DNA of 64,000 nt, from positions 437 to 64,436 of the forward strand of contig JBPPMJ010000002.1 in NCBI GenBank assembly GCA_051306005.1, given 5' to 3'. This DNA comes from Minisyncoccota bacterium (GTDB lineage: Bacteria; Patescibacteriota; Minisyncoccia; Moranbacterales; UBA1568). The position numbers and the translations under genes were made by a program. This document shows, piece by piece, positions 7,491-9,760 of this stretch; within the stretch, counting starts at the first letter, position 1; each line of letters begins with the position of its first letter. The notes beneath the pieces are model-generated. The model saw nothing but the letters and a program-made list of their open reading frames with translations, searched no databases and was not told where the DNA came from.

Positions 7491-8675
7491 CTATTTATTC
7501 AATGGCAAAGGCAAAAAGTTGTTTTTATCCAGTGCCTCAATAACACCTCTCAAAAGATAGTTATTTGCAAAGCATAATACATATTTCCTGCTTTTACCGC
7601 TCTCGGGAGCTATCATTTTTTTCTCTTTAAGCCTTCTTATCATACGAGATATTTCTGCAGGAATTTTCCCAGAAAATTCAGGCTTGATGTCCGATGCCTG
7701 AAAGATTTGCTCCTTGACAGCTATTCTTAGTATTTTTGCTTCGTCATCAGTTATGAGCTTTCTTTCAAGAGCAAAGGCAACAGTAGGCATTAGAATGTTT
7801 ACCGAAAGATACTTGTAATCCAAAAGCTTATCAATTTTCTCTATTTCCGATTTAAGACCGCCTAGCACATACTCGCACCATTCCAAAACTCCTTCATCCG
7901 TTCCTGTATCAGCTTTAGAAAGCATTTTGTAGTATTCGTCTCTATCATTACAGAAGACTGCCGTAGGATTGATGATTCTCCCTATATGAACATTGAATCC
8001 TTGCTTTACCAACATTGCATAGGTCAATAATCGAACAGTTCTCCCGTTGCCATTATCAAAAGGATGTATCCAAGCAAATCTATGATGGGCAATAGCTATT
8101 TTTAACAAGTCATATTTTGGAGCATCCTGTTTGTTGAAAAAGTTAAGAAGCTCTTCCATATAATCAGGAACTTGCACATAATCAGGATTCACGAGGCTTG
8201 AACCCGTTATACTCACCGGCATCTTTCTGTATTCTCCAGGAGTGCTGCTCCCCTCACCAGTCGGGGGAGGAGTTAACCCCTCCACCACTTTCTTGTGAAG
8301 ATTACCTAAGAAAGCTCTATTTATTTCTCCCTTACCTTTTTCTATATATTCATCAATATAAGCAAGAGCCTTTTCTCCATTTTGAATCTCGATGATTTTC
8401 TCATCTTTGCTTTTTGGGTTATTTATTTTCGTCTCGATAAATTCTGAAACCGTTGTCCTGTTGCCTTCTATGCGTGCAGAGCCAATGCTCTCAAGCGTAT
8501 GAAAAATCCCCTTCAATTGAAAAAATATGTCAGGGTCAGTAGTTCCTCCTAAACGCTTCTTTCTTAAGCCATCAAGGTCTATAGCTAAATCCGTGAGCGG
8601 AGAGCTGTATGGTGGCTCAACTATTTTCAAATCTAGGGGTTTAAATTTAACTTTCATAGTATCATTATTTAACAC
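7491..8675 (-). CDS. Fic/Doc family protein (AMPylation-type Fic domain)
   Basis: Canonical Fic motif HPFDNGNGRTVRLL (HxFx[D/E]GNGRxxR). 394 aa, with an extended N-terminus and a C-terminal winged-helix-like tail. Confidence 0.85.
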   Translation of the reverse strand: MLNNDTMKVKFKPLDLKIVEPPYSSPLTDLAIDLDGLRKKRLGGTTDPDIFFQLKGIFHTLESIGSARIEGNRTTVSEFIETKINNPKSKDEKIIEIQNGEKALAYIDEYIEKGKGEINRAFLGNLHKKVVEGLTPPPTGEGSSTPGEYRKMPVSITGSSLVNPDYVQVPDYMEELLNFFNKQDAPKYDLLKIAIAHHRFAWIHPFDNGNGRTVRLLTYAMLVKQGFNVHIGRIINPTAVFCNDRDEYYKMLSKADTGTDEGVLEWCEYVLGGLKSEIEKIDKLLDYKYLSVNILMPTVAFALERKLITDDEAKILRIAVKEQIFQASDIKPEFSGKIPAEISRMIRRLKEKKMIAPESGKSRKYVLCFANNYLLRGVIEALDKNNFLPLPLNK

Positions 8676-8790
8676 ATTTTACTTATAATAGGCTCTATAA
8701 AGCCATTAAATATACTTCTATAATACACAGTAATTAACATATTGTCAAGCAGTGATTTAACACACTGCAAACTCTCAATTAACACCACTG

Positions 8791-9648
8791 CTAGCCCCTT
8801 TCATCTTTATAATCTGGCTGGTCGGCTTCGATCCTCTTCCATAACTTATAGCCATTTCCGTGCTTCATAAGTCCAAGATAAGACTCGACCGTTTCCCGCT
8901 TTCCTTCTTTCTCACGAATATTTCGAAAAGCTCTGTTTTTGGTAACAGCGCACAATACTCGATGGTCTGGGAAGTACACCCATCCGAGAAAGTCCACGCC
9001 AGAAGCCACCGTTTTAATAAACACCTTGTCAGGGTGAAGTTTGAGACCAAGGCGAAATTCAAGGAAAGCACTTATCTGCAAGAGAGTTGTTTTCAGTTGC
9101 TCTTTATTATCCGAAAAAATCACAAAGTCATCAGCATAGCGGATATAGTATTTGGCTCTTACCTGATGCTTCATAAACTGGTCAAACTCATTCATATAGA
9201 CGTTTACCAGAAGTTGAGAGGTGAGGTTGCCGAGTGGTAAGCCTTTGCCTCTCTCTGTATGAAAGCTCCCAATGATTTCTGAAAGAAGCTTAAGAATATC
9301 TTGGTCAGGAATATGCTTTTTGAGAATAGTAAGCAGGACATCCTGGTCAATGGAAGCAAAGAACTTCCTGACATCGCATTTGAGTGCCCAAACAGTCCGG
9401 GTATGGTTGTGGGAAGCCTTGCGAGCAAAACTGCGGGAGCGGTCGAGAGCCTTGTGAATTCCTTTATCATTTCGGCAAGAATAGGAGTCGGCAATAAACA
9501 GTCGGTCAAAAAAAGGATAGAGGATACGGTAAATGGCACGGTGGACTACTCGGTCTTTCACCCTTGCCTTATGGATATTCCTTGGCTTTGGGTCGGAGAT
9601 ATTGAAAGCTTCATAGTGGGAGTGGCGATAGGATTTGAAACGCCTCAA
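8791..9648 (-). CDS. Reverse transcriptase, DGR (diversity-generating retroelement) type; RT domain only; TTG start in this frame, short N-terminus
   Basis: RT0/1 PRNIHKARVKDRVVHRAIYRIL; motif 4 GLPLGNLTSQLLVNVYM (DGR-diagnostic [I/L]GxxxSQ rather than the QGxxxSP of group II introns and retrons; near-identical to Bordetella bRT, whose motif 4 reads GLPIGNLTSQ as I recall it, unchecked); motif 5 YIRYADDFVIF. No maturase/X, endonuclease or other domains. Confidence 0.75.
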   Translation of the reverse strand: MRRFKSYRHSHYEAFNISDPKPRNIHKARVKDRVVHRAIYRILYPFFDRLFIADSYSCRNDKGIHKALDRSRSFARKASHNHTRTVWALKCDVRKFFASIDQDVLLTILKKHIPDQDILKLLSEIIGSFHTERGKGLPLGNLTSQLLVNVYMNEFDQFMKHQVRAKYYIRYADDFVIFSDNKEQLKTTLLQISAFLEFRLGLKLHPDKVFIKTVASGVDFLGWVYFPDHRVLCAVTKNRAFRNIREKEGKRETVESYLGLMKHGNGYKLWKRIEADQPDYKDERG

Positions 9649-9760
9649 AAAGTCCAGACATATGGCTTCCGATCGGCTTCCATCCTAGCTTACATTCCGG
9701 ATCTTGCGAAGGGGCTTGACACATTGCTTATCGATAAAATAGCCAGTCCCGAATTCGGAT

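Follow-up and report, generated by a model that had tools for sequence, protein, structure and literature searches.

Diversity-generating retroelements (DGRs) were reportedly found by Paul and colleagues in 2017 to be enriched in the genomes of Patescibacteria, the candidate phyla radiation (CPR). The described member to which we compare the locus reported here is the DGR of Bordetella phage BPP-1, which comprises the reverse transcriptase (RT) bRT, the protein Avd, a template repeat (TR), and the variable repeat (VR) of mtd. The N-terminal extension of bRT forms an extensive interface with Avd, which is needed for catalysis, and also positions and contacts the template:primer duplex, touching the phosphate of the template nucleotide via the conserved K29 (bioRxiv 10.1101/2023.10.23.563531). 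The second reference system is the Fic protein CccR of Yersinia pseudotuberculosis, which a type VI secretion system (T6SS) secretes and which AMPylates FtsZ at Thr8, a residue conserved only in Enterobacteriaceae (PMC9755527). Here, we analyze an RT gene and the Fic gene next to it in a 64,000-nt stretch of contig JBPPMJ010000002.1 from a Minisyncoccota bacterium; we refer to the whole stretch as the window, and all window-wide searches cover these 64 kb.

The original prediction, made from the sequence of this locus alone, offered three readings of the pair: a minimal DGR with a remote target, a decaying DGR, or an RT co-opted into a module with a toxin. Our analysis supports the second, with a junction that can be read to the base. 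The first and the third are not sustained, given that the N-terminal extension of the RT is gone and the junction is readable. We estimate, at a probability of roughly 0.85, that the RT is the stranded 3' part of a DGR, left behind by ordinary genome decay, and not a component of a new RT-Fic system.

The RT and the complete DGRs of its relatives

The RT open reading frame (ORF) encodes 285 aa from a TTG start (8791-9648; Pfam RVT_1, 1.2e-26) and contains the motifs DRVVH, GLPLGNLTSQ, and YADD. Upstream lies a GT4 glycosyltransferase gene (9761-10891; Pfam Glycos_transf_1, 4e-26, and Glyco_trans_1_4, 5e-23) and downstream a Fic ORF, 394 aa long when read from a GTG (7491-8675; Pfam Fic, 1.5e-17); in the ORF list all three are on the minus strand. 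The gap between GT4 and RT is 112 nt (9649-9760) and that between RT and Fic is 115 nt (8676-8790). In all of these ORFs, motifs, starts, and gap sizes, the ORF list and the Pfam matches agree with the original prediction.

A search against all PDB chains ranks the Bordetella DGR RT bRT (8ub7) first, with an E-value of 9.4e-38 and 134 bits; the best group II or retron RT scores 54 bits less. Second are group II intron and related RTs, at about 2e-21, followed by defence RTs, at least 74 bits below bRT. The form of motif 4 by which DGR RTs are recognized, [I/L/V]GxxxSQ, is present as LGNLTSQ, and the accompanying YxDD as YADD. The NCBIfam and PADLOC libraries leave the class undecided, as a DGR RT model is absent among their matches; the best NCBIfam model is a group II intron RT, with 133 bits against a cut-off of 300, and the defence RT models fall far under their cut-offs (Drt3a, for example, reaches 77 bits against 200).

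The relatives of this RT are more informative about its class. In a protein search, the closest homologues are 85-93% identical and come from Patescibacteria assemblies, and a genome scan yielded 80 loci related to the window RT, in metagenome-assembled genomes (MAGs) of Moranbacteria, Paceibacteria, Nomurabacteria, and other Patescibacteria. With a custom scan for repeat pairs that are mismatched only at the adenines of one copy, we detected a TR/VR pair in 58 of the 61 loci whose sequence reaches 1300 nt or more upstream of the RT. Each pair has 8-19 adenine mismatches, and 57 of the 58 have no other mismatch; the pair in locus L037 has two. The layout is constant, target-VR-TR-avd-RT: the VR is the 3' end of a small target gene, so that it is C-terminal in a protein without a Pfam domain; the TR lies about 360 nt further on; the match to the RT starts about 570 nt after the TR (range 540-700 nt); and a bAvd-family gene sits between the two on the opposite strand. 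In L003 (1465-1842) and L002 (29-364), avd is on the minus strand, and the roughly 570 nt from TR to RT are largely antisense to it.

The window RT is 92-93% identical to RTs within such complete DGRs. Because the relatives carry TR/VR pairs in a constant layout together with bAvd, we assign the RT lineage, on comparative sequence evidence, to the DGRs. This is consistent with the DGR type first proposed from the motifs, and with the comparison against other classes suggested at the same time, in which bRT outscored the group II, retron, and defence RTs of the PDB.

The 5' end of the RT gene

The short N-terminus of the RT, already remarked on in the original prediction, proves to be a real difference from its relatives. 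Full-length close homologues have 330-372 aa compared to the 285 aa of the window RT, and across 120 aligned homologues the median number of residues preceding the position of the window start is 49. The conserved N-terminal segment IISLENLLEAWKEFIRGKHKRKDVEEFE...L...TY of the homologues has no counterpart in the window ORF, and at least 47 conserved N-terminal residues are gone. When the protein is aligned to bRT, its residues 6-260 correspond to bRT 57-302; the fingers, the palm (YADD), and the thumb are kept, the N-terminal extension is gone, and the RT-derived part begins at about 9636. We ruled out a frameshift or a hidden upstream start, since the full-length RT of L003 matches the window at its residues 93-362 only (tblastn). 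There is an in-frame TAG at 9684-9686, 12 codons upstream of the TTG.

At the nucleotide level, homology to the RT genes of relatives begins abruptly at 9640-9636. On the other side, window positions 10000-9624 correspond to L087 854-1230 at 89.7% nucleotide identity, a match that takes in the last part of GT4, all 112 nt of the gap, and the opening codons of the apparent RT. The two alignments meet at a 12-nt microhomology, AATCCTATCGCC (9625-9636, minus strand), identified by comparing the window with L087 and with L003, L001, and L004. This string is common to the GT4 flank and to RT codons ~75-78, with two mismatches to L087 and one to the RT genes; the window tracks L087 up to it and from there on follows the RT genes of L003, L001, and L004. 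The TTG start and approximately four to six initial codons of the ORF (MRRFKS) come from the native 3' flank of GT4 (9637-9760, minus strand), delimited by the L087 match and base-by-base comparison; the last two of these codons fall within the microhomology.

The glycosyltransferase side of the junction has relatives of its own. When metagenome contigs were scanned with the GT4 protein, the GT4 of L087 was 89% identical to it, and L088 keeps the order rSAM (radical SAM), ORF, kinase, GT4. By its conserved surroundings we regard GT4 as chromosomal flank outside the retroelement. Taken together, these alignments indicate that the RT ORF is a 5'-truncated DGR RT that was joined to the GT4 flank by a rearrangement.

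DGR components missing from the window

Self-BLAST of the window (word size 7) and adenine-tolerant diagonal scans found no TR/VR pair in the 64 kb and matched only A-rich low-complexity stretches; the relatives served as a positive control, the same adenine-mismatch scan having found pairs in 58/61. No avd was found in the window by tblastn with two Avd proteins of relatives, which gave nothing below E = 0.8. Nor did tblastn and blastn match the target, VR, TR, avd, or RT N-terminus of L001, L002, and L003 anywhere in the window, and no homologue of the L001 or L003 target proteins was found there. One weak target match (E 4e-4, 49.4-49.7 kb) is spurious, lying inside the gene for a ribonucleotide reductase beta-subunit. 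The absence of a TR/VR pair and avd that the original prediction noted nearby therefore extends across the entire window.

Of the five defining features of a DGR, then, the locus has the RT class alone; the TR/VR pair, the target gene, avd, and a full-length RT are all lacking. To judge from its sequence, the locus is a remnant of a DGR and not a functional cassette. That it might instead be a minimal DGR working in trans, drawing on a TR, an Avd, and a target at other places in the genome, strikes us as extremely improbable: DGRs with remote targets are known, and our search covered 64 kb of the genome, but 58/61 relatives have their TR 540-700 nt upstream of the RT, with avd between them, where the window has GT4; the N-terminal extension that binds Avd is gone; and the window is without any sequence related to the relatives' TR, VR, avd, or target.

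Origin of the junction

The sequence of L087 just past the junction suggests where the missing parts once lay. There a convergent gene has its 3' end; over 178 aa it shares 97% identity with a recombinase gene in L001, of the type Recombinase/Zn_ribbon_recom. The L001 contig also includes an entire DGR, whose RT and that of the window are 92% identical, and a Fic gene comes after it. L087 and L001 become homologous at GAGCATCATAGG, which puts the window breakpoint within 2 nt of where the recombinase-bearing element has its left end. In the sequences combined, the genes run GT4 (forward), recombinase (reverse), cargo, target, VR, TR, avd (reverse), RT, Fic, and a 130-nt element described below. 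The 97%-identical recombinases belong to two assemblies, at L087 1230-1845 (by the GT4 orthologue) and at L001 1213-2400 (with the complete DGR), which suggests that the DGR is cargo of an integrative element of ~11 kb. The Pfam matches of the L001 recombinase ORF (395 aa) include no N-terminal resolvase domain. We considered a tRNA-like attachment site at the junction, suggested by a GGTTCGAATCC-like string in L087, and rejected it: ARAGORN predicts no tRNA and the stems are unpaired.

We propose that an ancestor had this element integrated immediately downstream of GT4, with recombinase, cargo, target-VR, TR, avd, RT, and Fic. One rearrangement would have joined the left end of the element to RT codon ~77 at the 12-nt microhomology. 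The simplest such event would be a deletion of ~9 kb (equivalent to L001 1309-10240), which fits the gene orientations, these being concordant in the window, L087, and L001. In one step, the locus would have lost the recombinase, the target gene, the VR, the TR, avd, and the N-terminal extension of the RT; Fic would have been kept since it is located beyond the deletion. The element's own recombinase, acting on a pseudo-site, may have catalyzed the event, an attractive idea because one endpoint falls on the element boundary.

The same junction has to be weighed as an assembly chimera, in which the GT4 flank and the RT-Fic segment were misjoined and a complete copy of the real RT would lie somewhere else. 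In its favour, the contig comes from a MAG, JGI metagenome contigs contain no exact match to a 25-mer spanning the junction, and the stretch in which the junction lies is short and repeat-like. Nevertheless, assemblers work with k-mers longer than a 12-nt imperfect microhomology, base composition is uniform over the junction, and the breakpoint lies within 2 nt of a real mobile-element boundary in L087/L001, as a biological event would give. We therefore consider a chimera highly unlikely.

The Fic gene

Read from an ATG at 8657, the start used by the identical NCBI protein P0121, the Fic protein has 388 aa (7491-8657, minus strand). A phmmer search matches it to CccR (PDB 7xux) with an E-value of 5.9e-111, aligning query residues 10-389 to residues 3-378 of the 380-residue chain; this end-to-end homology takes in the region of the C-terminal DNA-binding domain. 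The Fic motif with the catalytic His, HPFDNGNGRTVR, conforms to HxFx(D/E/N)GNGRxxR. Asn at the D/E position (HPFxNGNGR) is found in 115 of 120 homologues and the exact motif of the window in 31 of them. The inhibitory motif SARIEG, which has the form (S/T)xxxE(G/N), likewise recurs in 115 of the 120. Using the definition of class II Fic proteins given in PMC9755527, we place the protein by its motifs in class II and, by its homology to the 7xux chain, in the CccR family, which is spread over several phyla. AMPylation by the window protein is a putative activity.

The spacer between RT and Fic contains the best promoter match of the region, TTGACA-17-TATTAT (8720-8748, minus strand), which agrees with the sigma-70 consensus at 11/12 positions and lies in sequence conserved with L083 and L084. 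Four TGTTAAWT boxes on the minus strand (8784-8777, 8762-8755, 8739-8732, and 8674-8667, spanning 8667-8784) cluster at this promoter, out of seven in the entire window on both strands; three of the four are kept in L083 and L084, which are Fic loci of other genomes. By analogy with the autorepression of CccR (PMC9755527), the boxes are probably a candidate operator for the C-terminal DNA-binding domain, through which Fic would repress its own expression.

Promoter and gene also travel together. By blastn, the span 8763-7486 recurs in L083-L086 at 70-71% nucleotide and 77-79% protein identity, and no RT was found near these loci, which hold the closest Fic homologues. Because it has its own promoter and recurs as a unit in other genomes, in unrelated contexts without an RT, Fic is an autonomous unit (7486-8763, minus strand) and not the second gene of an RT operon. 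The two-gene unit that had been proposed does not stand up to this evidence, nor is the synteny of RT and Fic conserved: the closest homologues of this Fic have no RT beside them, and the closest RT relatives either lack a neighbouring Fic or have one of another type, 27% identical to it.

Fic genes downstream of related RTs

For 77 related loci, we ran a Pfam scan on whichever ORF comes first downstream of the RT. Fic is the commonest family in this position (5/77), and across the entire 1 Mb of flanks there are only two further ORFs with a Fic motif; the enrichment at the first downstream position is significant by Fisher's test (p = 4e-5, or 1e-3 with lineages counted once). The Fic proteins of L001, L003, and L007 are of one type, 27% identical to that of the window; L010 has a third type, and L037 a short Doc-like gene. 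All five Fic-bearing loci have complete TR/VR pairs. In L007 and L009, another Fic lies a few kb upstream of the cassette.

Fic lies between the RT stop and the same 130-nt element in the window, L001, L003, and L007. The same slot holds two Fic types that are 27% identical (window 7486-8763; L001 11138-12199; L003 2908-3969; L007 6336-7397), with both borders conserved, the RT 3' end at 85% and the 130-nt element at 85% nucleotide identity. We read this as the replacement in place of one Fic type by another, a turnover of cargo at the end of a mobile element.

A different reading of these data makes Fic a functional companion of the Patescibacteria DGR clade instead of chance cargo. It builds on the at least three unrelated Fic types and one Doc-like gene found in the first position after the RT, and on the swap of one type for another at that very slot in the window lineage; we think it unlikely. 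If it were true, Fic might regulate the cassette via its DNA-binding domain, act as a toxin that stabilizes the DGR-bearing integrative element, or act with the diversified surface protein on a host cell; the window would then keep the Fic half of a two-part system whose DGR half was lost. Bolder still would be the proposal that an RT without the N-terminal extension keeps an Avd-independent activity. Our literature searches found no paper on a DGR together with a Fic.

State of the truncated RT

Returning to the RT as the remnant of a DGR, we asked what is left of its function. Because the Avd-binding subdomain, Avd, the template, and the target are all absent, we conclude from the gene content that the truncated RT would be unable to carry out mutagenic retrohoming, and we infer that all polymerase activity is lost. 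No promoter-like site was found in the 112-nt gap upstream of the RT. The window has no terminator between GT4 and RT, and the ORF may be transcribed by read-through, because the terminator hairpin that follows GT4 in L087 lies beyond the breakpoint. The protein collection that we searched contains the Fic of this contig at 100% identity and no RT above 93% identity, which suggests that the source annotation issued no protein for the RT.

Two unique substitutions in the RT, F71S and R233C, fall at nearly invariant positions, and the lineage-specific changes in the window RT, 13 nonsynonymous (N) to 16 synonymous (S), give the highest ratio among seven close sequences. Pairwise ratios of nonsynonymous to synonymous rates (dN/dS) to relatives are about 0.05, with dS saturated.

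Several observations weigh against a decaying remnant left by a deletion. The 278 RT-derived codons are intact, without a stop or frameshift; no degeneration is visible in the protein, which departs from the consensus at 4 of the 136 columns conserved at 90% or more, where the homologues have a median of 3; and the 13 N : 16 S of the window RT does not differ significantly from the 91:194 pooled over relatives (p = 0.10). This means that the truncation happened recently or that some constraint still acts on the ORF, which is the strongest argument for the rival readings. Fic is enriched directly downstream of this RT clade (5/77), as described above, and some functional tie between DGR cassettes and Fic is conceivable. 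Finally, with 64 kb searched, the event may have been an inversion that moved the remaining half outside the window.

An intact ORF with all of its catalytic motifs also lends itself to the co-opted module, in which the N-terminally truncated RT would still be active and would form a two-gene unit with the CccR-type Fic, for example in defence. Read-through transcription from GT4 into the RT is possible, as no terminator separates the two; in the first position downstream of RTs of this clade, Fic is found more often than any other family; and PADLOC scores this Fic as SoFic-like at 5e-45. Such a module is very hard to reconcile, however, with the origin of the first codons of the ORF, which are an accident of the flank brought in by the rearrangement, or with the promoter of Fic's own and its closest relatives without an RT. 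Every other RT-Fic pair has a complete, TR/VR-bearing DGR and a Fic of another type; homologue and genome scans found no relative with the same truncation; and the RT matches defence RT classes no better than DGR. Neither mark of an RT-plus-toxin module, an RT of the retron, UG, DRT, or Abi classes or a conserved RT-effector operon, is found at this locus. We accordingly give a co-opted module very little credence and retain the reading of the RT as a stranded DGR fragment.

The 130-nt element and other features of the window

The 130-nt repeated intergenic element directly after the Fic slot (7356-7484, minus strand) also follows the different Fic of L001, L003, and L007. A repeat comparison revealed a second copy in the window, with 74% identity (3385-3513, minus strand), after a DUF2726 gene. 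Copies elsewhere are at L001 12204-12278, L003 4180-4306, and L007 1412-1537 and 7401-7526, and the copies are 74-87% identical to one another. The first ~25 nt of the element (ATAGTGA..GGCAGGGTGGGGTAA) occur alone just upstream of the targets in L001 (8304-8328), L003 (96-120), and L007 (3531-3553), so that direct repeats flank the DGR-plus-Fic module on both sides. No Rfam family was found for the element, and an Rfam scan of the whole window returned tRNAs only. We also tried the element as a structured RNA, for which RNAalifold gives a weak hairpin with too little covariation to call. A promoter or leader, a recombination site, and a small RNA are candidates for its role.

Near the second copy lies a stranded gene fragment. 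Window 4023-4090 (minus strand), 68 nt long, shares 91% identity with L003 24-92, where the ORF that precedes the DGR in L003 has its 3' end; the fragment has a stop 8 codons upstream and abuts the DUF2726 gene (3467-4003), which is followed by the second copy of the 130-nt element.

Two further families of repeats are present in the window. A 95-nt repeat (81% identity) occurs at 3296-3389, in the leader of a class II aminoacyl-tRNA synthetase-like/AsnA-like gene (2100-3428), and at 14761-14855, directly downstream of a tRNA-Asn gene (14848-14922). Direct repeats of 98 nt (92% identity) and a third partial copy, at 36665-36869 and 37262-37337, fall within an ORF of 585 aa (36257-38014, minus strand) that weakly matches O-antigen ligase (Wzy_C); this repeat region is the lowest-GC part of the window (34%), and a tandem repeat finder detected none at 35.5-38.5 kb. 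Seven tRNA genes, for Leu, Cys, Gly, Met, Phe, Val, and Leu, are located at 40220-41767 (minus strand).

Comparison with known systems

Taken alone, the locus matters little, as a decayed DGR beside a known kind of Fic. It is a worked example of why a DGR RT without a TR/VR pair should first be compared with full-length relatives for a 5' truncation, ahead of any proposal of a minimal or co-opted system. For DGR specialists, the points of interest are that an integrative element with a large recombinase carries the DGR in this lineage, with the breakpoint of the remnant at the element end, and that several Fic types recur directly after the RT.

The Fic protein resembles CccR of Y. pseudotuberculosis in its homology over the full length, the class II motif, and the family-typical N in the Fic motif; its C-terminal region aligns to the DNA-binding domain of CccR, and its promoter carries repeated boxes. 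The boxes themselves differ, in that the CccR operator consists of two inverted 10-bp repeats 26 bp apart (PMC9755527) and the window has direct TGTTAAWT repeats. Secretion by a T6SS and AMPylation of FtsZ at Thr8 cannot be assumed for a Patescibacteria host. The protein also resembles SoFic of Shewanella, which is class II too, and the PADLOC SoFic profile matches most of it with an E-value of 5e-45. We rejected the assignment as a SoFic orthologue, given that the NCBIfam SoFic equivalog model scores 44.5 bits against a cut-off of 550 and the SoFic chains of the PDB match at 1.5e-7.

As in retrons, DRT/UG systems, and AbiK/AbiA, the RT adjoins a potentially toxic enzyme on the same strand. 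Unlike in those systems, the RT is a member of the DGR clade, RT and Fic do not form a conserved operon, and Fic has its own promoter; Rfam scans of the whole window and of the 130-nt element detected no non-coding RNA family.

The RT itself compares most closely to that of the BPP-1 DGR. It aligns best to bRT and shares LGNLTSQ and YADD, and its relatives have an adenine-mismatch TR/VR pair and bAvd. In contrast to BPP-1, the window RT starts at the equivalent of bRT residue ~57 and is without Avd, TR, VR, or target; a second difference is that, in the clade of the window RT, avd is opposite in strand to TR and RT. Set beside the DGRs of Patescibacteria, the relatives are typical in coming from Patescibacteria MAGs and having small targets with a C-terminal VR, and the window locus is a remnant of such a DGR without its variable parts.

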